A stretch of DNA of 64,000 nucleotides from Mucilaginibacter sp. (lineage in GTDB: Bacteria > Bacteroidota > Bacteroidia > Sphingobacteriales > Sphingobacteriaceae): contig JAQBOK010000023.1 of the NCBI GenBank assembly GCA_028288085.1, forward strand, positions 19 through 64,018, written 5' to 3'. Both the position numbers and the translations under genes were made by a program. The stretch's first letter is position 1. Each line of letters begins with the position of its first letter. Under the pieces are notes generated by a model, which was not told the DNA's origin, ran no database searches, and was given only the letters and a program-made list of their open reading frames with translations. Of this stretch, positions 1,640 through 15,234 are shown in pieces.

Positions 1640-2485
1640 TTAATTTTTTACAATAATTTCTTTTAATTCATTTATTGTGAAATAATTATTTTTCGCATTC
1701 TTCCGGTGCAACATTCTATGGCAATTGGAACATACCAATGCAAGGTCATTTAATTTTGTAAGTCGTTTCCCAGCTTTGGCAATAGGAGATTTGTGATGAC
1801 ATTCGATAAACCCATTTCCATGATTTCCATATCTTAATTTGAAATCAAAATTACAAACCTCGCAAAATAGAATATTACTTTTAATAGCTTCTTTTTTTTT
1901 TGCTTGGATAATTTGGGGGTCTCTTTCATAGTATTTATGTTCTTTCATCTTTACTTTTTCTTCACCCTCAATAGAACCATCTATCTCGATCTCGAAATTA
2001 TCATTAATAACAAATTCGAATAAATCTTTTAGTTCAGCATCTGGGTTAAAAAGATTCCAAATTTTTCTTTTTAGCTCGAGTTCGCTAATAGGTAATTTGT
2101 TAGTTCTTTCTATTAAGTTAATATTGCAACAAGCTCCCCTATTTGGCTTAAAAAAATTAAGTTCAATAGGTTTTGGAATGTATGCCATTGCGATAACCCC
2201 GACTAATCTGCAAAATGGGTGAGTAGAATCTCTTACTTCTATTTTATTATCCAATGGAGTTACAATATGCGTAAGATAAGTGCCTTTGGGATATTCTAAG
2301 CCCTTGTTGATTGTTTGAAATATTAAGATTAATTCACCACAAATAGCTTTTAGTACATTTCCTTTTTTCCTTTTTGGCCAATTTAAAAAAAATGAGCCTC
2401 CAACAATTGCGTCCATGTACGCCCACCCATTTCCTTGTTCCCTTTTGACGTTTTTAACCCAATTTAGATCACTAGAGGTATACAT
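1640..2485 (-). CDS. HNH endonuclease (McrA/type IV restriction-like) with uncharacterised N-terminal domain
   Basis: C-terminal CEVC...IECHH...LVCSNCHRMLH is a zinc-binding HNH of the McrA type; AT-rich. Confidence 0.85.
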   Translation of the reverse strand: MYTSSDLNWVKNVKREQGNGWAYMDAIVGGSFFLNWPKRKKGNVLKAICGELILIFQTINKGLEYPKGTYLTHIVTPLDNKIEVRDSTHPFCRLVGVIAMAYIPKPIELNFFKPNRGACCNINLIERTNKLPISELELKRKIWNLFNPDAELKDLFEFVINDNFEIEIDGSIEGEEKVKMKEHKYYERDPQIIQAKKKEAIKSNILFCEVCNFDFKLRYGNHGNGFIECHHKSPIAKAGKRLTKLNDLALVCSNCHRMLHRKNAKNNYFTINELKEIIVKN

Positions 2486-2488
2486 ATA

Positions 2489-3520
2489 TTATTCAGCTAT
2501 AGTATAATTGGCAATCATTTTCTCACCACAACTTAATAAGTAATCATAAGAAACAACTTCAATATGATTCAAATTACAATTTAGCATTCTAAGAGCATTA
2601 TATTGATCTTCGTTAAAATCCCTTGTCCTACCGGCAATAATTTTAATTCTTGGTCTTATGATCTTGACTTTATGTTCTTTTTCAATATTTAATTTGAAAT
2701 CATCCATTTTTTGAAAATAGAGCATGCATTGTCCAATCACCTTTGCCAAATCGGTGGACGGGTAATAACTACTGTGACTATCATCAAATTTAAAAAGTCC
2801 ACAAGTTGGTCGTTTAAGTTCTATTAAATCTAAAAATCCGTCTATAGATTGCATTAACATATCCGCTTCACTGAACATTGCGATTTTACGGGCTTCATGT
2901 TTTTTAATATATTCAATCCCGAAAATCCAATTGTGGTTTTTTTCAATCCAATTTTGAAATATTTTTTCAGGTTGGCTTGCTAAATAATCGCTTAGATTTT
3001 GATGGCTTTTTATTTCCTCTACGATATTTCCTGATTCTTCCAGTTCTAATAGTAATCTTAAATTATTAATCTCGTTCTGCCATTTTTGATGAATATATAG
3101 CGATGATAAATCCGCTATTATGCTTTTTCCTGATTTTTCTTCATCAGATAATGCAATAAGCAAATTTTTAATTCTATCCTCACTATTAAGTTTGTTTATT
3201 ACGATTTTCAGTATTCCATTATCGATATTTGACGATTTACTTAGAATATCAGCAATTTCATCGGTTGTTTCCAAAAATTTGCCGGATGTTTCGAAGGTTG
3301 AATCTCTGATAATTGAGATTTGACTCAAATGACTATATAGGCTTTTAATTTGGTTGCAATTCAAAGTTTCCGAAAATTTCGGTAGCCCATTATTATCAAA
3401 TGCATAAATTGACATAGTTAGATCGGCAGCGTTGACCGAGCTGTTTTTAATTCCAGAGAAATTTACCTTTAAAGTTAAGTTCTCATTTGAAAATATTTCT
3501 CTATCAAATTTAATACTCAT
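2489..3520 (-). CDS. sduA: Shedu anti-phage nuclease (DUF4263, PD-(D/E)xK)
   Basis: C-terminal EKIFQNWIEKNHNWIFG...ADMLMQSIDGFLDLIELKRP...VIGQCMLY...PRIKIIAGR...IEVVSYDYLL matches DUF4263/SduA motifs. Confidence 0.85.
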   Translation of the reverse strand: MSIKFDREIFSNENLTLKVNFSGIKNSSVNAADLTMSIYAFDNNGLPKFSETLNCNQIKSLYSHLSQISIIRDSTFETSGKFLETTDEIADILSKSSNIDNGILKIVINKLNSEDRIKNLLIALSDEEKSGKSIIADLSSLYIHQKWQNEINNLRLLLELEESGNIVEEIKSHQNLSDYLASQPEKIFQNWIEKNHNWIFGIEYIKKHEARKIAMFSEADMLMQSIDGFLDLIELKRPTCGLFKFDDSHSSYYPSTDLAKVIGQCMLYFQKMDDFKLNIEKEHKVKIIRPRIKIIAGRTRDFNEDQYNALRMLNCNLNHIEVVSYDYLLSCGEKMIANYTIAE

Positions 3521-3867
3521 CAGACTTTCATAATTACATCTTTATAACCATCCCACTCAGAATTGTAATTCTCATGATACGGGGGTGCAAACGCTCCTTT
3601 TTCTAATAGTACAAACACATTACTAAGGTCTTCAATATTATACATTCTGAAACTGGGAAATGGTTTTCCTTCTTTTGAATCAGATACGCCGTCAATTTGT
3701 ACTATATGTACTTTGGTGCTTTGTATATTTGTATTTTTTGCTGTAAAAATAAAGACCGCATAAGGATGTCCTATCCTTACTCCTTGCACCTTTCCTTCCT
3801 TGTTGTATTCAAAGGAAATATGGTTCCTGCTAGTTATGGCCTGTTTTAAAACTTCTAATGTGTTCAT
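3520..3867 (-). CDS. Stand-alone WYL-domain protein (no HTH)
   Basis: LKQAITSRNHISFEY...VRIGHPYAV...SFRMYNIEDLSNV fits the WYL pattern (AI..r..l.f.Y...R.v.Py...FRl.rI); stop overlaps the Shedu ATG (TGATG). Confidence 0.7.
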   Translation of the reverse strand: MNTLEVLKQAITSRNHISFEYNKEGKVQGVRIGHPYAVFIFTAKNTNIQSTKVHIVQIDGVSDSKEGKPFPSFRMYNIEDLSNVFVLLEKGAFAPPYHENYNSEWDGYKDVIMKV

Positions 3868-3990
3868 ATTGTTTAATTAAGGTTAGTTTCATTTAAACTT
3901 TGTAATAAGCTTATTATTTCAACAATACACATGCTTCAAATCCAATCGGTAAAGTTTTATCAAAAAGTACTATGAATAAAAAGCGTTTAT

Positions 3991-4392
3991 TTAAAGCAAT
4001 TTGTCAAGAAGCATTTTAATTTCTTCTAATCTTGGCTGCAACTGTTTTTTGTTGCTTTTATAATAGTCACTTATTTCAGGCAATCTATCAGGGGCTATTA
4101 TTTGTTCCTTAAGACTTGAACGTGTGCTATATGAAGTTGGATCAGAAAATATCCCTGATATAATTAAAATAGTCAAGTCTAAAGCGCGATGTATAGGTAA
4201 TTCTTCACTTTGTCGGCTCCATTTATTGCCTGTGTGCCTAAAAACCTTTACAGAAATTTGATCTTCGTCATACTGTGCTTGTCCAATAGACAATGCTTTA
4301 GCATCGCTGTTAGGAGCATATATGCCATCTTTTTTATCATAGTCATTTACAGCTATAATTGGTTTATGCTGTAAGTGTTCGGGGACATTCAT
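3991..4392 (-). CDS. DUF6530-family protein
   Basis: HKPII...YDKKDGIYAPNSDAKALSIG...SVKVFRHTGNKWSRQSEELPIHRALDL matches the DUF6530 consensus as recalled. Confidence 0.75.
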   Translation of the reverse strand: MNVPEHLQHKPIIAVNDYDKKDGIYAPNSDAKALSIGQAQYDEDQISVKVFRHTGNKWSRQSEELPIHRALDLTILIISGIFSDPTSYSTRSSLKEQIIAPDRLPEISDYYKSNKKQLQPRLEEIKMLLDKLL

Positions 4393-4564
4393 AAGAAAAT
4401 TTATTATTAAATGATTGGTTTTGATTTACTGTTTAGGCTAATACCAAAGCTTGGTTTAAATAATTTAACAAACAACCCGTTAAAACACCCAATTTTCAAT
4501 CCTTATTAGCCTGTAATAATGGTAATTAAAAAAATGGTTCGGACAAAGTCAATCAACGATTGCA

Positions 4565-5815
4565 TTACTCTAATAGCAATGAATCATCCTCATCCCCCAA
4601 GCTCAGATGGATCATGTCATTCCCTGCGATACCTTCAATTGAGCCTTTAATATGGGCGGCGTTTAGTAATACTTTTTCCAATTGTTTTTCGCGGGCTTTC
4701 CATAGTTTTTCCATGGCATCGCGTTCCCGTTGTATGGATAGGCGCATGCTCATATAGCCTTCGCGTATGGCTTTCCACTGTTCAGAAAACTCATTGCTTA
4801 TCAAATAATCATATAGCAGGTGCATTTTATCGCCTTTGTTATCCTGTGCTTTTGCCAGGTTGGCAAGCTTTATAATGCCATCCCGTAAGATGTATGATAC
4901 TGCTTTCACTTCATCAAATGAACAGATCCAAACACCCTCTTTTTCGCCAAAGCAATCCATCCCTTTTGGGTAGCATTGGGTAACAATTACAGCTACATCA
5001 ACCCCAATGGCACGCATATCCTTTTTCAATTTATCTATCCAGTCGATGGAGAAATCTTTGGTCCGCTTGCTCTCGTAAATAATGCGGCCACATTCCTGTC
5101 CAAATTGGTTGCGTACGGTTTGGATACAATCAGCACCGCGAACACCTTTGCCAACTTCGCCTATTACATCAAAAGGAAAACTATCGCGAAGCAATTCCTC
5201 CAATATCAGTTCCTGTACCTCACCCTGTAACTGCATGGAGCCTTGTTCCACTTTGCGTTTCATTTCTTCGGCAAGTTTTTTCTGGTCGTCTAACTGTTTT
5301 TCCAGTTCCTTTACCTTTAGCTGGTAGTCGGTATCTTTCAAATTGAATTTTTCGGCTTCCTGCTTTCTTATATTTTCGGTGAGTTCATTCCTTTGTTCCT
5401 GCAATTTGCGTTGCATGGAAAGTTCCAGTTCTTCTTCTTTTTGTTTTAGCGCCTGTTCTTTTTGCAGAAATTCAAGCTCTTTTTGCCGGGAAGCCTTTAG
5501 TTTTTCGTCTGAATCTTTAATGTTGCTTTGCAGCATCAGCAATTGATTCTCAAAGTCGGATGCTATGGATTTACGCAGATTTTCTTCAAGGGTTAATTGC
5601 AACTGTTTTTTCTCTGCTGCAAGGCGTTCTTCAAATTGTAATTGCTGCTGACGTTCTTTTACTGTAAACTCACTTTCTTTTCTCTTATATTCTTCTTCTT
5701 TTTGGGTAGTATATTCCTGCATTTTTACCCGAAGCTCTTTTTTATATTCTTCAGCCATCACTTCCTCAATAGGAAATCCAAAACCACAATTAGGACATTT
5801 AACTTCTGTTGCCAT
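4565..5815 (-). CDS. DUF2130-family protein (Zn ribbon, coiled coil, RmuC-like/PD-(D/E)xK C-terminus)
   Basis: Start reassigned to MATEVKCPNCG (ATG at 5815); long E/K/Q coiled coil, then QLQGEVQELILE...GADCIQ...IIYESKRTK. Confidence 0.85.
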   Translation of the reverse strand: MATEVKCPNCGFGFPIEEVMAEEYKKELRVKMQEYTTQKEEEYKRKESEFTVKERQQQLQFEERLAAEKKQLQLTLEENLRKSIASDFENQLLMLQSNIKDSDEKLKASRQKELEFLQKEQALKQKEEELELSMQRKLQEQRNELTENIRKQEAEKFNLKDTDYQLKVKELEKQLDDQKKLAEEMKRKVEQGSMQLQGEVQELILEELLRDSFPFDVIGEVGKGVRGADCIQTVRNQFGQECGRIIYESKRTKDFSIDWIDKLKKDMRAIGVDVAVIVTQCYPKGMDCFGEKEGVWICSFDEVKAVSYILRDGIIKLANLAKAQDNKGDKMHLLYDYLISNEFSEQWKAIREGYMSMRLSIQRERDAMEKLWKAREKQLEKVLLNAAHIKGSIEGIAGNDMIHLSLGDEDDSLLLE

Positions 5816-5937
5816 GTTTAAAAAAGGAATTAAATCTGCAATTATTATAATCGCGTTTAAAGATAGTGATTGGTAAAATATCTTCCTGATGGGATGCAGA
5901 AATAAATTGGTATGAGGGGGGCGGTTGTCCGCCGAGG

Positions 5938-5985
5938 GTATCACTTTGAGCCGGTTGAAGTTTGCCTGCCACGCTTCGACATTGC
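5938..5985. repeat. Degenerate REP-like element
   Basis: tcactttgagccggttgaag...cttcgac resembles TGTCA(C/T)CCTGAGC..GTCGAAG...CTTCGAC palindromic repeats; heavily decayed. Confidence 0.3.
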
Positions 5986-6179
5986 GGTGGTTGGGTTGTG
6001 GTTTATTGAATGTTGTTCCGCTCATGGCCGCGGGGGGCCTAGTCCGTTATTCACCAGTTATTTATTTTTTATCGGTGTTCATGATTGCTATCGCAATTTG
6101 ACGCGTCAAAAGTAACCAAAAGCGCTTGTTATTGTTATTCAATGGTGTTCATGAGACCGCTACGCTAAGTCTTGGATTT

Positions 6180-7050
6180 CTATGATTCATGCAACTAATC
6201 TGGAATAATTTTTTCATAGGGTCTGTTTTGGTTCACACAGACAAAAACACGTAATATTAGCTTGTTTCTTATCGCATTTACTGTGCTCATTTTATTTTTT
6301 CCATCCTGTTTTACCTGCGTTCGTAATAAAGTTTCAGGTCTTCGCTATGTTATATTGAGATTAATGCAGCAAGGTGTAATAGCCTTTTAAGATTTTTATT
6401 GGCCATATGCAACACTCTTCCTTTGCCTTTATATAAGCCGGATTCTTTTACGAATGGACGACACCGGCATGGCAGGCAAACTTTTTAGGGTCTTTAATCT
6501 CTTTAAACTCGTTTGTAGTGATGATGATCATAGTAGCAGTTACCTTTCCAATACCGCTTACTGATGTGATTAGGGCATATAGCCGCTTGAGTTCAGGATC
6601 GGTAGCTATGATCTCATCAATTTCTTTTTCAACTTTTCCAAATCTGTTTTGAGCCCGTTTAAGGTTCTATTACACAGCTTATTGTGGTGAGTTTGCTGTC
6701 TTTTTTTTATAAATGCGCCTGTCTCTTTGAATGGGGTCTTCAATGACTTTTGAACTTGCACTAGTCGAGAGCGGATTGTGGACAAGTGTGCCAATTGTTG
6801 AATAACTTCTCTTTTGGGTGTCCACAAGCGTAATCCATCACGATTTTTATAAGCGTATTCCGCAATATCGCATCTATCTTGTCATTTTTACTACGTAAAT
6901 TCCATAAGGAGTTTTTTATTTGCGTAGCTGCCTCCAAACAGATATGAATTTTTTTGGATAAAAAGCGGAAGCAATAATTGCGTTAGTGATGGAAGTGGAT
7001 ACCGGCCATGGTGACTAATGCCTGTGCAGTATGAACGGACTGCACGGCCG
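6180..7050 (-). pseudogene. IS110-family transposase remnant with multiple frameshifts
   Basis: Fragments across frames: LEAATQIKNSL, KNDKIDA-IAEYAYKNR-LRLWTPKREVIQQL, ITSVSGIGKVTA, KFACHAGV-PFVKESGLYKGKG, GKNKMSTVNAIRNKLILRVF. Ends approximate. Confidence 0.85.
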
Positions 7051-7221
7051 CAGGCAACGCCCCAATTTTAACGCAATGACGGTTTAAATAAATTAGAAAT
7101 CGAGCATTCCAAATCCCTCCCTAACCCACAAAATAAATACACAACGAACTGTGAATATTGTGATTTATTCTTTTTAAATTTATTCAGCATTTATTTCTTA
7201 ATTTCTCAATACCAGCCTATT

Positions 7222-7800
7222 ATGAAAAAGAATCACTTTTATCATTTTGCATTATTGGTATTATTAAGCCAGTTTGCAACATCGTTTGTTTTAGCACAAA
7301 CCAATCAGCCAATAATAGCTTATGTCAGCATCGACGGTACAAAAACAGGGGTATTTAAAGGCAATGCCGTTACAGAGGGCAACGAAGGCAAAATTGAATG
7401 TATCGGTTTCAGATATTCTGTTGCGGTACCTCATGATGTATCAAGCGGCCGGAGCAGCGGCAAACGCCAGCAATCGCCATTTGTTATTATAAAAAACATC
7501 GACTACTCGACCCCGCAATTATTACAGGCCGCCTACAACAACGAAACCCTGAAAACGGTGACCATTGAATTTACCAAAAAATCTGCCGACGGGCGGCAAA
7601 CCATCGCTTATAGGGTAACGCTCAAAAATGCTTCCATTTCGCTGATATCACAATATGGCGGTACAGCCTCGGCAGACAATGGCGTAAACCTTACCAACAA
7701 TGGCAGCTTGTTTGAGGAAGTTACCTTTACTTTCCAGGACATACAGTCTGATCACCTTATAGGCAACACCACCGCAATGGATTCCTGGACTAAGGAATAG
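7222..7800 (+). CDS. hcp: Orphan Hcp/TssD-like tube protein with N-terminal Sec signal peptide
   Basis: SGRSSGKRQQSPFVIIKNIDYSTPQLLQA...NETLKTVTIEF...VTLKNASIS...EEVTFTFQDI matches Hcp1; preceded by MKKNHFYHFALLVLLSQFATSFVLA|Q. Confidence 0.85.
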   Translation: MKKNHFYHFALLVLLSQFATSFVLAQTNQPIIAYVSIDGTKTGVFKGNAVTEGNEGKIECIGFRYSVAVPHDVSSGRSSGKRQQSPFVIIKNIDYSTPQLLQAAYNNETLKTVTIEFTKKSADGRQTIAYRVTLKNASISLISQYGGTASADNGVNLTNNGSLFEEVTFTFQDIQSDHLIGNTTAMDSWTKE

Positions 7801-8195: not shown

Positions 8196-9797
8196 ATGAA
8201 ACGCATCCTGGTTTTTGTTCTGTTTTTATTTGTGTTTACCACAGCGTTTTGCCAGGGTTATGATAACTTAGCCACTAAACTCAATACCGTTCTTGATAAA
8301 AAGAAACAGTATGATGAGGAAAAGATAAGGAGGATAGATAATTTAAAAAAGCTGCTGAAGGAGGATGATAACCCCGATCTGAATGCCCGGTATGCGATCT
8401 ACCTGAGCTTGTATAATGAGTATAAATCATTTAATTATAACGAGGCATTTAATTATACCCAAAAATTGCAGCAGGTGGGCCGTTTGTTAAAAGACCCGGC
8501 CAAAATTGCTTATGGAAAAGTTAAGCTGGGGTTTATTTTGCTTTCGTCGGGCATGTTCAAAGAAACATTCGACTCCCTGCGTACCGTTAATGTAAAGCTG
8601 CTGGCTGATACGGAGAAGAAGGAATACTATTTCTTAACGGCCCGCACCTATTATGACCTGGCTGATTTTGATAAGGATAATTACTATGCCCCCATTTACA
8701 ATAGTCGCGCCAGCAAATACATTGATTCGGGAATTAATTTGTGCAAGGCAAACTCATTTGAATATGTTTATTATACCGGGTTAACGTCTCTTAAAACGGG
8801 TAATATGAATAAGGCGATAGCTAATTTAAAATTGCTTATTAGCCGGTCTGATTTAACCGACCACCGGTTTGCCGTAACCGCGTCAACACTCAGTGATATT
8901 TATATCAGGGCAAACAAACCCGATAGCGCCATTAGCCTTCTGGCACTCGCGGCAATGGCCGATATCCGGTCGTCAACCAAGGAAGCCGCCGCTATGCTTA
9001 ACCTGGCACAGTTGCTGCACACGCAGGGCGATGCCCGGAACGCCTATGTTTTTATAAGGCAGGCGATGGAGGATGCTATTTACTATGGCGCCAGGCAGCG
9101 AAAGATACAGGTGGGCGCCATTTTGCCGGTGATAGCGAGCGAACGGATCAACTCCGTGGAAGAACAGCGGCGTGTATTGTTCCTGTATGCTTTATCACTT
9201 ACCGTATTATCGCTCATTGTGGTAGTATTTGCAGTAATTATTTATAAGCAGCTCCGAAAATTAAAAATAGCCGATAAGATCATCCTCGAAGCCAATCATA
9301 ACCTGCAAGAGAGTATAGACAAACTGAATGAAGCCGATAAAATAAAGGAGGAATATATAGGCTATTATTTCAACCTCATATCTGAATACATTAATAAGCT
9401 GGAGAAATTTAAACGGTCTGTTGATAATAAACTAACCACCAAAAGGTTTGAAGATATCCGCATCATAGTAAACAACATCAACCTCACCAAAGAGCGCGAG
9501 GAGCTTTTTATTAATTTCGATAAAGCCTTTTTAAAGATCTTCCCCAATTTTGTTTGTGCCTACAATTCGTTATTTGACGAGGAGCACCAGGTGAAGCTTT
9601 TACCCAACCAACTAATGAATACCGACCTGCGGATATTTGCATTGATAAGGCTCGGTATCCACGATACCGAAAAGATAGCTAATATATTGGAGTACTCCGT
9701 AAACACCATTTACAATTACAAAGCCCGCATAAAAAGCAAATCAAAGATATCTAACGATGATTTTGAGCAGGCTATCATGGCAATTAAGGCCTTCTAA
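8196..9797 (+). CDS. SusR-like PUL regulator (TPR-like sensor, TM helix, DUF6377/HTH)
   Basis: Signal peptide, helical periplasmic region, one TM, then KEEYIGYYF...REELFINFDKAFLKIFPNF...TDLRIFALIRLGI.D...IA.IL.YSVNTIYNYKARIK; directly upstream of susC. Confidence 0.85.
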   Translation: MKRILVFVLFLFVFTTAFCQGYDNLATKLNTVLDKKKQYDEEKIRRIDNLKKLLKEDDNPDLNARYAIYLSLYNEYKSFNYNEAFNYTQKLQQVGRLLKDPAKIAYGKVKLGFILLSSGMFKETFDSLRTVNVKLLADTEKKEYYFLTARTYYDLADFDKDNYYAPIYNSRASKYIDSGINLCKANSFEYVYYTGLTSLKTGNMNKAIANLKLLISRSDLTDHRFAVTASTLSDIYIRANKPDSAISLLALAAMADIRSSTKEAAAMLNLAQLLHTQGDARNAYVFIRQAMEDAIYYGARQRKIQVGAILPVIASERINSVEEQRRVLFLYALSLTVLSLIVVVFAVIIYKQLRKLKIADKIILEANHNLQESIDKLNEADKIKEEYIGYYFNLISEYINKLEKFKRSVDNKLTTKRFEDIRIIVNNINLTKEREELFINFDKAFLKIFPNFVCAYNSLFDEEHQVKLLPNQLMNTDLRIFALIRLGIHDTEKIANILEYSVNTIYNYKARIKSKSKISNDDFEQAIMAIKAF

Positions 9798-10230
9798 GTA
9801 AAAATCACTTCCTGTTCCTGTTATATGCCGTTTATATTTACCGGCTATTGTATGTTGATTAAGTAATTGATTATCAGTTATTTGATATTTTATAAACACG
9901 CCTGTGGTTTATATTTTGCCTTTGAAAATTGCTGCCCAAAATTATATCCCCTCTATTTGATATCGTATTAGCAACCTGCTGAAGATCTGTTTTAGCACCA
10001 GCCAATATTATAAACCAATTATTGCCAAATCTTATTGTTTATGAAAACCTATCAAGGAAATGATCCATTGTTAGTTTGTTTTTCTGTACAGCTCTTAGGG
10101 TACAGCAGCAAGGCTGATATTAAGCATTTCAACATGCATTTGCTTTCGGGATAAAGCATCTATCCGGCGAAATTCTTACGCTCTTCAAAACCAATTAAAT
10201 ATCAATCAACAACCTAAAAATCTAAACATT

Positions 10231-13200
10231 ATGTATAAAAAACAATTACTAAAATTACTTTTTTGTCCTTTGTTTTTGCTGATATCATCCTGGGCCATGG
10301 CACAGAATGTATCAGTTACCGGTAAAGTTACCGACGAAAAAGGACAGGTGCTTCCCGGGGTAACAGTATCCATAAAGGGAACAACCAAAGGAACAAATTC
10401 AGACCTTAACGGAAAATATGTCATTACTGCCAACAGTAATGATGTGCTGATTTTTTCGATGGTTGGATTTGTAAAGCAGGAGGCTAACATAAATAGCCGG
10501 TCAACCATCAACATTACTTTAAAAGATCAGGATCAGCTTTTAAACGAAATTGTGGTTATTGGTTATGGTTCGCAAAAACGCCGGGACGTAACCGGTTCCA
10601 TTGCTTCAGTTAAGGGCGAAACCTTTAAAGATCAACCCATCACTAACCCCATATCGGCACTGCAAGGACGAATTGCAGGTGTTAACGTGGTAGAAAGCTC
10701 CGGGCAGCCGGGTGCTGCGCCAACTATTACCATTAGGGGGCTTTCTTCATTTTACCAACCAAATCCATTATATATAGTTGATGGTATAAGGGTTGGCGAT
10801 GTTTCTAACATCAACGTGCAGGATATAGCAAGTATTGATGTTTTAAAGGATGCGGCTTCTGCGGCCATTTACGGTTCTGCAGCAGCAGGCGGCGTTTTGC
10901 TGATCACCACTAAAAAAGGCACTGGATTAGGAACAGACCCGGTGATAAACTTTAGTGCAAGGTATGGTGTTACCAAGCCAAAACTGGTTAACCTGCTGGA
11001 TAGGGACGATTTCATAAAAATACAAAACATAGTTCACCCAGCTTTTTTTGCCGGTGCTACCAAAACAGATACCTTATCAAATACTGATTGGGTGCATTCG
11101 CTTTACAAAAATGCTGTCGAACAAAATTATAATGTATCGGTTTCTGGTTCATCACCCGTAGTAAATTATCTGTTCTCCGGGTTTTATAATGCGCAAAAAG
11201 GCTCATACATCAATAATTATTCAAATATTGGTGGAGCCCGCATTAATACCGATTACAAATTAAGTAAGTACATCACCGTAGGCGAGCAATTAGGTATATC
11301 GCAACGCAAAGCAGACCCAGTATTAACCGATCTGCATAATGCGCCATTCAGAACGCAGCCTATTATTCCATTGCGCAACGAAGATGGTACCTTTGGCACC
11401 GAGCCTTCTGGCTATAAAATACAATTTGGCGGGCCAAACTCTTACGCCGCTGCCCAAACCATTACCGCGCAGGATTACACAAATAATTTGCAGGCCAATG
11501 TGTATGCTGATATAAAGCTTCCCCTGCACCTTAATTTCCGCAGCACATTTGGTTATTCTTACTATTATTACACAAGAGATCAATTCCAGGATATTTATAA
11601 CGCCGGCGCTGTTTCAGTTGGAAACAACACCCTTTATAAAAACGAGGCGCAAAGCAACCAGTTGCTAAGCAACTATGTGCTTAGCTATAATCAGAGCTTT
11701 GGTAAACACAACATCAGTGCCGTAGCCGGTTTTGAACAGATCACCAGTACCGGCAATAGCTTGTATACCAGTATGGGTTCAATCGGAATAAATGGTTATT
11801 CTTATGTTCCTACATCCATTTCGGGTGCGCAAACAGTGCTTAATGGAACATATGATTCCAACAGCCTTATTAAATCTGAATTTGGCCGCTTAAACTACAA
11901 TTATAATAACCGGTACTACTTATCGGCCTCTATCAGGCAGGATGCCAACTTCTCGGTATTCGGTCCGGATAAGCAAAGAGGTGTATTTCCGGCAGCATCA
12001 GTTGGTTGGAACATTAACGAAGAGCAGTTTTTCAAAGCAGCTTTACCGGTAATTAATGCGCTTAAATTACGCGCCAGCTACGGCTCACTTGGTAACAGTA
12101 ATATTCCTCCATATTCTTATGCTGCTAATTATACCCAGTTTAATAGCACCACAGGTATATCAGGAGGCGCGCAAGGCTTTGCACCGGGCGCACCGTTCCA
12201 GGTTGCAAACTCCAGCACCAAGCTACCAAACCCTAATGTGCATTGGGAAACAGTTACCGAAGCCAACGTAGGGATAGACGGCGAAGCGTTGAATGGCCGC
12301 TTGTATTTTACAGCAGAATGGTATAATAAAAATACCAAAGATATGCTTTATGCATTGCAGCTGCCTACAAGTGCTGGCTTTACCCAACCATATTTTACCA
12401 ATATAGGCACAGCTAATAATCGTGGTTTCGACTTTATGGTGGGTTTCCGCGACAAAGTTGGGAAATTAGGTTATGACGTTAGCGTGAATGCCGGATTTAA
12501 CAAGAATAAATTATTAAGCTTATCTGGCGCCGCCACAGATGCTGTTGTTGATGGGTATAACTATTACAACAATTCAGACGCGGGCTTTAGCATAATGTCT
12601 AATCAAAACATTACTATCAGCAAGGCAGGCCAGCCGTTCGGATCTTTTTATGGCTATAAAGTACTTGGTATTTTCCAAACGGATGCAGAAGCAGCCGGGC
12701 AAAAAGTTAACGGAAACGTTGCCCATGCCGGTGACCTGCACTACCAGGATTTAGATGGTAATGGAGTTATTAACCAGGCCGATAAGCAGATAATAGGTAA
12801 TCCTAACCCTAAGCTGGTATACGGTATAAACATTCACCTTAACTACCAGGGTTTTGATCTGGCAATGTTATTTAACGGGGTAATGGGCGTTCAGCTCTTC
12901 AACGGGGTAAAGGCTTATGAAGAGTCTCTTTTTTCTGATGGTAATACCACCAGCAAAGTGTTTGGCGATTCGTACCTGGGCAGTAATGGACTTACTTCGC
13001 AGCCGCGCCTGGGCTTAGCGCAAAATGGTGGGTTTACATTAGATCCAAACCAAAACTATAGTTCAGTAAATAGCTATTTTGTTGAAAATGGAAGCTATTT
13101 AAAGCTGAAAAACCTGCAATTTGGTTACACATTTTCTAATGGCATTTTACGGCGGTTAAGTATTAAAAGCGCCAGGGTATATGTAATGGCTAATAATGTA

Positions 13201-13353
13201 TTTACCATCACTAAATATACAGGGCTTGATCCTGAATTAGGCAGCTCATTCACACCATCTGGCTATGGTACGGTAACTACACAAGGAATAGATGGGGTAA
13301 CAAATTATCCGCAAACACGGATCTACTCTGCAGGCCTGGATCTTACTTTTTAA
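10231..13353 (+). CDS. susC: SusC-like TonB-dependent transporter
   Basis: CarboxypepD_reg-like N-terminus, plug motifs (VVIGYG, LQGRIAGV, IDVLKDAASAAIYG, GVLLITTKKG), C-terminal YPQTRIYSAGLDLTF. Confidence 0.95.
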   Translation: MYKKQLLKLLFCPLFLLISSWAMAQNVSVTGKVTDEKGQVLPGVTVSIKGTTKGTNSDLNGKYVITANSNDVLIFSMVGFVKQEANINSRSTINITLKDQDQLLNEIVVIGYGSQKRRDVTGSIASVKGETFKDQPITNPISALQGRIAGVNVVESSGQPGAAPTITIRGLSSFYQPNPLYIVDGIRVGDVSNINVQDIASIDVLKDAASAAIYGSAAAGGVLLITTKKGTGLGTDPVINFSARYGVTKPKLVNLLDRDDFIKIQNIVHPAFFAGATKTDTLSNTDWVHSLYKNAVEQNYNVSVSGSSPVVNYLFSGFYNAQKGSYINNYSNIGGARINTDYKLSKYITVGEQLGISQRKADPVLTDLHNAPFRTQPIIPLRNEDGTFGTEPSGYKIQFGGPNSYAAAQTITAQDYTNNLQANVYADIKLPLHLNFRSTFGYSYYYYTRDQFQDIYNAGAVSVGNNTLYKNEAQSNQLLSNYVLSYNQSFGKHNISAVAGFEQITSTGNSLYTSMGSIGINGYSYVPTSISGAQTVLNGTYDSNSLIKSEFGRLNYNYNNRYYLSASIRQDANFSVFGPDKQRGVFPAASVGWNINEEQFFKAALPVINALKLRASYGSLGNSNIPPYSYAANYTQFNSTTGISGGAQGFAPGAPFQVANSSTKLPNPNVHWETVTEANVGIDGEALNGRLYFTAEWYNKNTKDMLYALQLPTSAGFTQPYFTNIGTANNRGFDFMVGFRDKVGKLGYDVSVNAGFNKNKLLSLSGAATDAVVDGYNYYNNSDAGFSIMSNQNITISKAGQPFGSFYGYKVLGIFQTDAEAAGQKVNGNVAHAGDLHYQDLDGNGVINQADKQIIGNPNPKLVYGINIHLNYQGFDLAMLFNGVMGVQLFNGVKAYEESLFSDGNTTSKVFGDSYLGSNGLTSQPRLGLAQNGGFTLDPNQNYSSVNSYFVENGSYLKLKNLQFGYTFSNGILRRLSIKSARVYVMANNVFTITKYTGLDPELGSSFTPSGYGTVTTQGIDGVTNYPQTRIYSAGLDLTF

Positions 13354-13377
13354 TATTCACTCTCAAAAATTATCAAA

Positions 13378-15234
13378 ATGTTAAAGAAAATATTTATAGC
13401 AGTACTGGCGGTTATGATAATGGCCGGCTGTAAAAAGGACCCCAAGAACGTTGGGCCCACCACGGCGTATAGCACAAGCACTTACCCCCGCAATATCGCC
13501 GATTTGCAAAGCATATTAGTTTCCTGTTATTCTAACCTGCGTGATCAGGGTATATTTGGTTTCCATTTTTTACCAAAGGCGCTGTCCAACTCTATGCATA
13601 CGGTTAATTCGGTTTATGCTGATGATCCGTCATGGAATGAAATGACCAATGCTAACCTTACCATTGGTAACGAATATGTTGGTGAAACATGGCAGGCCTT
13701 ATATATTGGTGTAAAGAACTGTAATTTAACTATTTATGCCGCCAATCAATATGTAAGTCAGCATAGTTTGAGTGATGCGGATAAGCAAACCGTTAACCTG
13801 GTACTTGGCCAGGCTTATTGTTTACGCGGATGGTATTACATGGAACTGGAATGTCTTTACGGCGAAAAGTACTTATCTGCTGGCGGGGTAGGCGGCGATG
13901 CGCTGGGCGTGCCTATTTATAATGGCGTACCAACAGATCTTGCAGGTACCCAAAAATCCAGATCTACAGTAAAAGAAGTATGGGCACTCATCATCAGTGA
14001 CTTTAAACAAGCTCAAACTTTGCTTAAAGGCCAGGTTTGGGGATCGGCTGATTTAGCCCGTGTAACAGAATGGTCTGCAGAAGGCCTATTAGGTAAAGCC
14101 TATGTATATACCCAGGATTGGGCTAATGCAAAAACAGCTTTGCTGGATGTGATTACCAAAAGTGGAAAATCATTAATGGATTATAGCACTTACCACAATG
14201 CGTTTAATGGCAGCAATAAGTTTAATACAGAGTCATTATTTGAGCTGTATATTGATGCCGATGCAAAAGGCGGTTATGGCATTTACAGTGGGGCAGCTAA
14301 CTCGGCAACCATCAACGGCCTTATATGGGCACCATTTACCTTTGGCGGATACAGCTCTAATGGTACCCCTTTTAATGGTTCAGAAACCCAAAACCAGGCT
14401 TTAGGTTATGGCAATGAGTTTTTTCATGATCAAAATGTTTTACGTTTCGGGTATTCACTGGGCAGCAATTTTAACCTGGTAGCTAATCCAAAATACAACC
14501 CAGTTGTAGGTCCAACGTTTTATAACCAGCAACAGGTAATGGATCCGGTTTATAAGCAGGCAGCTTTACTGGCCCGTACAAATAATACTACCGACCCGCG
14601 TTTATATGTAAATGCAATGCAGCCACGTATTGATTCGGTTCAATTTGATGGTAAAACATGGGCATTGGTTTGCAGGCCCGCATATTTTGCCGGATCTGCA
14701 AATAGCACAGCATATGGTTGGGCAATCAGGAAATACGCATCAATAAACTACAATGAAAATACAGGCCTGGGTAATCCTTCCGGCTCTGGAAATACAGCAG
14801 ACGCATGGGATTATTACATCCTCCGCCTGGCAGATGTATACCTGCTTTATGCAGAGGCATCCATACAAGGCGGCGATGCTGCAACGGGGCTCGAATATTT
14901 AAATAAGGTTAAACGCAGAGCATATAGCTATCCTGTTAATTCACCTTCGCCGGTTGATTATGCAAGCGCTACCAGTCAAACAAACGCTATAAATGACCCT
15001 GTTTTAGGGCACAACCCGCTATACTACGAGCGTTGGGCCGAATTGTTTAATGAAGGTTCATGGTGGTTTGATGTATGCAGGTGGCGCATAGGTAAATCAG
15101 AAGCAGCCTATTACGGAACCGCTATTAATGTTAACGGTGCTTTACATTGGGATGATTCTAAATCCTATGTATGGCCAATTCCGCAAAGTGAGATCAATAG
15201 CAATGGTAAGATAAAGCAGAGTTCGGGTTATTGA
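13378..15234 (+). CDS. susD: SusD/RagB-like surface lipoprotein
   Basis: Lipobox IMAGC; GQAYCLRGWYY, LRLADVYLLYAEA, ERWAELFNEG, WPIPQSEI. Confidence 0.93.
   Translation: MLKKIFIAVLAVMIMAGCKKDPKNVGPTTAYSTSTYPRNIADLQSILVSCYSNLRDQGIFGFHFLPKALSNSMHTVNSVYADDPSWNEMTNANLTIGNEYVGETWQALYIGVKNCNLTIYAANQYVSQHSLSDADKQTVNLVLGQAYCLRGWYYMELECLYGEKYLSAGGVGGDALGVPIYNGVPTDLAGTQKSRSTVKEVWALIISDFKQAQTLLKGQVWGSADLARVTEWSAEGLLGKAYVYTQDWANAKTALLDVITKSGKSLMDYSTYHNAFNGSNKFNTESLFELYIDADAKGGYGIYSGAANSATINGLIWAPFTFGGYSSNGTPFNGSETQNQALGYGNEFFHDQNVLRFGYSLGSNFNLVANPKYNPVVGPTFYNQQQVMDPVYKQAALLARTNNTTDPRLYVNAMQPRIDSVQFDGKTWALVCRPAYFAGSANSTAYGWAIRKYASINYNENTGLGNPSGSGNTADAWDYYILRLADVYLLYAEASIQGGDAATGLEYLNKVKRRAYSYPVNSPSPVDYASATSQTNAINDPVLGHNPLYYERWAELFNEGSWWFDVCRWRIGKSEAAYYGTAINVNGALHWDDSKSYVWPIPQSEINSNGKIKQSSGY

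Follow-up and report, generated by a model that had tools for sequence, protein, structure and literature searches.

Hcp, also called TssD, is the tube protein in type VI secretion systems (T6SS), and the absence of a signal peptide and dependence on a sheath machine are treated as hallmarks of the family. Canonical T6SS-i Hcps, such as those of the structures 3HE1, 4HKH (Hcp1 of enteroaggregative Escherichia coli, EAEC) and 5MXN (V. cholerae Hcp), carry no leader, and their assembly takes place within the TssBC sheath, in the cytoplasm. Here we describe an Hcp gene at positions 7222..7800 of a 64-kb stretch of DNA from a soil Mucilaginibacter-type bacterium (GCA_028288085.1, contig JAQBOK010000023.1; the whole stretch is called the window below). 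Its product belongs to the same PF05638/TIGR03344 family, has the same fold and is 29-30% identical to P. aeruginosa Hcp3. Unlike the canonical proteins, it has a predicted cleavable Sec leader, it is encoded in a genome without a T6SS, as are most of its leader-bearing relatives, and genes for VgrG, effectors or immunity proteins are absent from its neighbourhood; for these reasons it is not expected to be a functional TssD. Judging from sequence and comparative evidence, we consider it very likely that the gene encodes a Sec-exported, T6SS-independent Hcp-fold protein. It belongs to the Hcp sequence and fold family and, in the operational sense, does not count as a T6SS tube protein.

Three other described groups are worth comparing. 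TssD of the T6SS-iii (PF17642) shares the host phylum and the general tube fold class with our protein, but belongs to a different sequence family. Periplasmic T6SS immunity proteins (Tsi/Tai/Tli type) and orphan immunity islands are likewise exported by signal peptides, reaching the compartment in which injected toxins do their work, and distributed sporadically in bacteria that lack the weapon. However, they bind the active site of one cognate toxin and have no sequence or fold relation to Hcp, whereas a hypothetical Hcp decoy would sequester cargo in its lumen. Hcp-ET (extended Hcp) effectors and the minor Hcps of cargo cassettes are also Hcp domains encoded outside a main cluster; these have C-terminal extensions, no signal peptide and a dependence on the T6SS, while the protein studied here has an N-terminal leader, no extension and no toxin or immunity neighbours. 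The "HcpA-E" proteins of Helicobacter are a name collision. In databases, proteins of the present kind are labelled "type VI secretion system tube protein Hcp/TssD", and a full-text literature search, including the text of Zhang et al. 2012, did not find a description of a Sec-exported Hcp.

An Hcp domain behind a predicted Sec leader

The open reading frame (ORF) is intact, with 192 codons and a stop, and its sequence matches the one quoted in an earlier note on this DNA, which had recognized an Hcp from motifs. This identity was borne out by profiles and by the predicted fold. PF05638 (T6SS_HCP) matched residues 34-178 over its full length (positions 1-129 of 129) with 87.4 bits against a cut-off of 23.5, and was the only Pfam match at E <= 1. 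TIGR03344 ("type VI secretion system tube protein TssD") matched residues 31-191 (positions 3-166 of 167) with 106.9 bits against a cut-off of 58.9. The conserved C-terminal D-x-W of Hcp is present as well. Neither the T6SS-iii TssD profile PF17642 nor, in the Pfam search, the tube profiles of extracellular contractile injection systems (eCIS) and phage tails (PF06841 and PF19266) matched the protein. By sequence it matched 14 solved Hcp-family structures, including EvpC and the T6SS Hcp chains of 7FCF; the best of them was P. aeruginosa Hcp3 (3HE1, E 2e-18), the alignment beginning at query residue 30. An AlphaFold2 (AF2) monomer model built with 28 homologues (pLDDT 83, pTM 0.72) has a lone N-terminal helix at residues 3-25 followed by an all-beta domain. 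When it was compared with known structures by Foldseek, the top 20 matches were all Hcp structures (TM normalized to the target 0.83-0.94), with E down to 1e-15 for 6A2V and a TM of 0.94 for EAEC Hcp1 4HKH, so that the structure prediction proposed earlier gave an Hcp fold and not another one. As judged by profiles and model, the predicted mature domain is a full-length T6SS-i-type Hcp to which 25-30 residues have been added at the N-terminus.

This N-terminal addition has the parts of a signal peptide: an n-region MKKNH with two Lys, an h-region FYHFALLVLL and a c-region SQFATSFVLA. Signal peptidase I (SPI) is predicted to cut after Ala25 (VLA↓QTNQ), so that positions -3, -1 and +1 are V, A and Q. 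The ATG at 7222 is the first ATG/GTG/TTG codon in its frame, which stays open over the 50 codons upstream. Within 70 codons, a further canonical start occurs just once, as a TTG inside the h-region (codon 12), and codons 31-32, at the position where canonical Hcps start, are ATA ATA. Having no alternative start near the Hcp domain, the protein should carry its leader obligatorily. A true start downstream of the leader had been named as something that would overturn the prediction; no ATG/GTG/TTG occurs between codon 12 and codon 70.

The leader is also conserved. About 40 homologues of near-identical length were found, some of them named Mucilaginibacter, and all full-length orthologues in the alignment start with M-K/R-K, continue with a hydrophobic core and reach the cut site with [AS]-x-A↓Q. 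Each of M1, A25 and Q26 is present at >=90%. Over nine orthologous genes, the mean hydropathy was about +2.1 for residues 9-25 versus about -0.35 to -0.4 for residues 26-60, and the median dN/dS was ~0.26 in the leader versus ~0.15 in the mature part. The retained hydropathy and the dN/dS of the leader indicate that it is translated and constrained.

In Bacteroidota, most SPI substrates expose a Gln at +1 that is then converted to pyroglutamate by cyclisation (PMC5837995; PMC10653852). In leader-bearing Hcps of named genomes, a Q follows the predicted cut in 10/11 proteins from Bacteroidota versus 1/14 from other phyla (Fisher p = 3.5e-5). Q is also the residue found most often at +1 when SPI sites of the same genome are crudely predicted (17% vs 3.7% background), and two neighbours in the window show it, namely SusC (...WAMA↓QNV) and the DUF6377 protein (...TAFC↓QGY). 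In exported Hcps outside Bacteroidota, the predicted cut lies directly before A-[LV]-N-A-Y, and the native N-terminus of leaderless Hcps (M-ALNAYL...) would thus be regenerated. From layout, conservation, purifying selection, the +1 residue, the place of the cut and the lack of a bypass start, residues 1-25 are best described as a conserved, host-adapted Sec/SPI leader. The Sec leader, the typical +1 Gln and the adaptation to the host that the earlier note had proposed all held up, the Gln being near-invariant in the clade and following the phylum.

There is no Cys in residues 1-59, hence no lipobox, and with the Hcp profile match extending to residue 191 of 192, neither a C-terminal domain of the type IX secretion system (T9SS) nor a toxin extension would fit. 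With neither a lipobox nor a T9SS domain, the exported Hcp should be soluble. Cys60 (window 7399-7401, in IECIGF) is nearly invariant across the Bacteroidota exported clade and aligns with a buried hydrophobic residue in canonical Hcps.

T6SS markers and the class of exported Hcps

The window lies on one contig (C268) of a 5.07 Mb assembly with 383 contigs and an estimated completeness of 96.9%. PF05638 matched a single protein in the whole genome, the product of the 7222..7800 gene. As stated earlier, the 64-kb window has no T6SS genes, and this absence was extended to the genome: whole-genome searches gave neither TssC (PF05943) nor the T6SS-iii tube TssD (PF17642), and tblastn with all ORFs of two T6SS-i and two T6SS-iii clusters detected no T6SS structural gene. 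The tblastn matches were limited to ClpB and to the spike, PAAR and gp25 genes of eCIS loci. PF05943 is a marker for T6SS-i only; it was silent in genomes with PF17642 and is unsuited alone for declaring Bacteroidota free of T6SS. It was therefore dropped as a universal T6SS marker and replaced by PF17642 and tblastn with the T6SS-iii clusters. It matched 4/151 genomes of the phylum, and one inspected cluster carried TssM, TssA and TagF. The match of PF17642 in T6SS-iii genomes agrees with the earlier statement that the T6SS-iii of Bacteroidota uses a divergent tube family.

Two weak Phage_GPD (VgrG-like) matches were considered as the VgrG of a hidden T6SS and ruled out, both being members of eCIS operons (on contigs C74 and C249). 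Each of these two operons contains Pvc16_N, a phage sheath, two gp19 tube genes, CIS_tube, a VgrG-like spike of ~600 aa, PAAR and gp25. Both run into contig ends, and cargo genes would lie beyond view.

The leader-bearing Hcp is found in 8/151 species genomes of the genus, and the T6SS-i sheath TssC in none of the 151. The T6SS-iii tube PF17642 is present in 30/151 of them and in only one of the eight Hcp carriers, so the Hcp gene seems neither linked to nor dependent on a T6SS.

To view the family more widely, 1.84 billion cluster representatives were searched exhaustively with HMMER, which yielded 2,899 relatives at E <= 1e-3. The 148 nearest relatives (50%-identity clusters) were classed by the sequence before the Hcp domain; for distant relatives this classing is heuristic (hydropathy window, charge and -3/-1 residues). 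Hydrophobic leaders were found in 83 of the 148, of which 78 were SPI-like and 5 were flagged for a lipobox; 38 clusters were leaderless, 16 had another N-terminal extension and 11 were multi-domain or large. Bacteroidota, Acidobacteriota, Myxococcota, Planctomycetota, Armatimonadota, Chloroflexota and Actinomycetota all contain leader-bearing Hcps. By these predicted leaders, the 7222..7800 Hcp is one member of a very large exported class in multiple phyla and not a one-off. In a tree of 145 Hcp domains, it lies in a clade of 18 clusters that all bear leaders (SH-aLRT 95). Leader-bearing and leaderless proteins are interspersed in the rest of the tree, where supported branches force at least 4 changes; the tree as a whole is poorly resolved. 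Thus the phylogeny suggested by the earlier note gives a uniform leader state near the query and a mixed one elsewhere.

A scan of GTDB species genomes gave 80 loci from many phyla. T6SS genes occur within 8 kb of 0/25 leader-bearing copies vs 10/61 leaderless ones (p = 0.03). At the genome level, TssC is present in 1/24 carriers of leader-bearing copies vs 9/26 (p = 0.011), and PF17642 in 2/11 Bacteroidota carriers of a leader-bearing Hcp. The majority of carrier genomes (21/24) are without any T6SS marker.

Several forms of these proteins differ in how they would be exported or built. Lipoboxes are clear by eye in LLAAC, LTGC and VSGC (lipobox Hcps P0052, P0062, P0068 and L043, whose carriers include a cyanobacterial metagenome-assembled genome (MAG) and a Chloroflexota MAG), and P0109 has a leader like those of twin-arginine translocation (Tat) substrates, SNRRSLIK. 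Exported Hcps (L054, L093, L109, P0120, P0064, P0147, P0183 and P0190), carried by Actinomycetota (including Frankiaceae) and a MAG labelled Thaumarchaeota, have a Cys-containing N-domain and collagen-like G-P-x repeats; these (G-x-y) repeats lie between the leader and the Hcp domain and resemble collagen-stalked surface fibres. There are also giant proteins with 5-17 tandem Hcp domains (P0047, 1230 aa; P0055, 1157 aa; P0070, 5053 aa; P0076, 3375 aa; P0107; P0112; P0131), and a clear signal peptide is seen on P0076 at least; a covalent ring could arise where a single chain contains six Hcp domains. In an Armatimonadia MAG, two leader-bearing Hcp genes stand in tandem (L044:6595-7700).

Tube-like proteins of two further kinds were seen in Bacteroidota. 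A second exported family of 168-181 aa, in five genomes of the same genus (L116-L120; genomes G093, G013, G117, G027 and G051), has Bacteroidota leaders (...QTRA↓QTEE, ...STYA↓QTDE) and a C-terminal PF17642 match of 29.6 bits (cut-off 25.8), and its sequence suggests that a tube protein was recruited to the envelope in parallel. Leaderless PF05638-type Hcps (MALNAYLKLKGQKQG...; L060-L062, L068, L081, L085, L088-L092, L099 and L104) are found in Chitinophagaceae, Ferruginibacter, Chryseobacterium and Bacteroidales. T6SS-i genes are absent from the 8 kb around them, and some of the genomes that have them show T6SS-iii markers only.

Surroundings of the gene

The exported Hcp gene sits between a low-GC defence island and a polysaccharide utilization locus (PUL) (table 1). 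Its own GC (0.43) equals that of the host backbone, and a PADLOC scan of its protein gave no match. A sigma-70 consensus scan of the plus strand of the upstream intergenic region found no match; the promoters of Bacteroidota differ from that consensus. The PUL is transcriptionally separate from the Hcp gene and is not kept beside its orthologues. Close orthologues stand in unrelated housekeeping contexts (SurA/MoxR...ferrochelatase; phospholipase C...DoxX). Comparing the neighbourhoods, as had been proposed, no neighbour family besides Hcp itself recurs across 27 leader-bearing loci, which makes the exported Hcp a stand-alone gene.

Table 1. Features of the window around the Hcp gene, and the two eCIS operons on other contigs of the assembly.
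Feature	Position	Strand	Basis or remark
Low-GC island (GC 0.30-0.31), five defence-type genes	1640-6025	-	
HNH/type-IV restriction endonuclease-like gene	1640-2485	-	low-GC island
Shedu SduA	2489-3520	-	PADLOC E 3e-40
Small WYL-like protein gene	3520-3867	-	low-GC island
DUF6530 gene	3991-4392	-	low-GC island
DUF2130 gene	4565-6025	-	low-GC island
Two short ORF fragments	6606-6937		after island; without family match
AT-rich intergenic region, presumed promoter and 5' untranslated region	6938..7221	+	upstream of ATG 7222
Exported Hcp precursor gene (predicted export), complete	7222..7800	+	first-start ATG 7222; PF05638 and TIGR03344 matches
Predicted signal peptide, residues 1-25 MKKNHFYHFALLVLLSQFATSFVLA	7222..7296	+	outside Hcp profile; n-h-c layout
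Mature Hcp domain (predicted), residues 26-192 (core 31-191)	7297..7797	+	profile and structure matches; dN/dS ~0.15
PUL downstream of Hcp gene	8196-15234		DUF6377 regulator, SusC, SusD
DUF6377/TPR/LuxR-type membrane regulator	8196-9797		
SusC	10231-13353		
SusD	13378-15234		
eCIS (PVC/Afp-like) operon 1	C249:14763-22618		outside window; gene content
eCIS (PVC/Afp-like) operon 2	C74:7055-14448		outside window; gene content

Alternative explanations and possible roles

So, there are several potential explanations of an Hcp with such an N-terminus. If the start were mis-called, the real product would be a leaderless cytoplasmic Hcp for a T6SS elsewhere in the genome. Hcp is cytoplasmic in the textbook, orphan hcp genes are common (51/61 leaderless relatives have no T6SS gene within 8 kb), and the assembly is fragmented with ~3% missing. 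Nevertheless this explanation is hardly credible, because no start codon is available between codons 12 and 70 (codons 31-32 are ATA ATA), purifying selection keeps the leader across orthologues, neither TssC, TssD-iii nor any tblastn match to T6SS-i or T6SS-iii structural genes was found in the genome, and the T6SS-iii tube is missing from 7/8 congeneric carriers. The leader could instead be an uncleaved signal anchor tethering the Hcp domain to the outer face of the inner membrane, and the hydrophobic stretch F9-A25 of ~17 residues, modelled as one helix at residues 3-25, speaks for this. We regard an anchor as improbable: the second half of the stretch is broken by the polar residues S16, Q17, T20 and S21, as in a c-region; the near-invariant V-L-A of the -3/-1 positions followed by Q (A25 and Q26 >=90%) is the SPI signature of Bacteroidota (PMC5837995); and in other phyla the predicted cut restores the native Hcp N-terminus.

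The Hcp fold is homologous to the tube proteins of contractile tails, and sheath, VgrG-like spike, PAAR and gp25 genes stand in two eCIS operons of the genome, so the protein might be thought an accessory tube or cargo adaptor of one of them. However, each operon has two gp19-type tube genes and CIS_tube of its own. A Sec leader is incompatible with the assembly of eCIS particles, which takes place in the cytoplasm, and the Hcp gene lies on a different contig and is never beside contractile-system genes in the 27 leader-bearing loci; a part in an eCIS is thus very improbable. There is equally little to be said for a decaying relic of a lost T6SS that no longer has a function, in which the hydrophobic N-terminus would be an accidental upstream extension. 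A relic would suit the sporadic distribution (8/151 genomes of the genus), the adjoining low-GC defence/mobile island and the absence of conserved partners, but the ORF is intact in all orthologues, with 60-87% amino acid identity and dN/dS ~0.15, and the GC of the gene equals the host backbone. Moreover, with TssC in 0/151 genus genomes there is no obvious parent T6SS-i, and the leader-plus-Hcp design recurs in many phyla with phylum-appropriate cut sites.

On the other hand, some points weigh against a Sec-exported, T6SS-independent Hcp as well. The signal-peptide call is based on anatomy, conservation and the phylum-specific +1 residue. Absence of a T6SS-iii was read from PF17642 and tblastn only, PF05943 being blind to T6SS-iii sheaths, and a T6SS cluster may sit in the missing ~3% of the fragmented 383-contig assembly. 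The neighbourhood of the gene holds no functional pointer. Finally, monoderms (Actinomycetota and Chloroflexota) have exported Hcps too, and this speaks against an anti-T6SS role of the entire class that would be confined to the periplasm.

Taking the protein as Sec-exported and T6SS-independent, we propose that a T6SS-i-type Hcp was taken out of its T6SS context and given a host-adapted Sec leader. The precursor would be translated from ATG 7222 and directed by the leader to SecYEG, and SPI would cut it after V-L-A25. Gln26, the predicted new N-terminus, would probably be cyclised to pyroglutamate by the glutaminyl cyclase of Bacteroidota, and the Hcp domain of ~18 kDa would fold in the periplasm and there most likely form a hexameric ring, as is typical for Hcps; release in outer-membrane vesicles is possible. 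As the genome has no sheath, baseplate, spike or ClpV for it, the exported Hcp would act without them.

Hcp rings have a lumen of ~4 nm that can hold small proteins, or they can stack into tubes. Based on this property, the role of the exported Hcp is conjectured to be that of a periplasmic protein-binding cage or scaffold. In order of preference, it could be a decoy that gives immunity by catching Hcp-borne toxins which T6SS-armed neighbours inject, a holdase that serves envelope proteins of the same cell or a structural oligomer. The decoy idea, itself a conjecture, agrees with the sporadic distribution and with hosts that have no T6SS. It leaves the monoderm Hcps, the collagen-stalked forms and the tandem giants unexplained, and these look more like surface or matrix modules. 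A bolder proposal, which we hold to be unlikely, is that exported Hcp rings are a novel defence against T6SS attack, in which rings in a T6SS-less periplasm recapture Hcp-borne toxins that neighbours have injected by sequestering them in the lumen, and not as toxin-specific inhibitors, and that, more broadly, the Sec-, lipoprotein- and Tat-exported Hcps, including the collagen-stalked and the 5-17-fold tandem forms, make up a large unrecognised class of extracytoplasmic, T6SS-independent rings.

Annotation pipelines call every PF05638 protein a "T6SS tube protein", and here the protein so called is a real Hcp that appears to be built for Sec export in a T6SS-less genome. If this is true, Hcp rings are put to another use in the cell envelope or extracellularly, and counts of hcp overestimate the occurrence of T6SS in metagenomes. 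It would also offer a simple stand-alone protein of 18 kDa with which Hcp rings could be tested as periplasmic cages, and possibly as broad anti-T6SS decoys.

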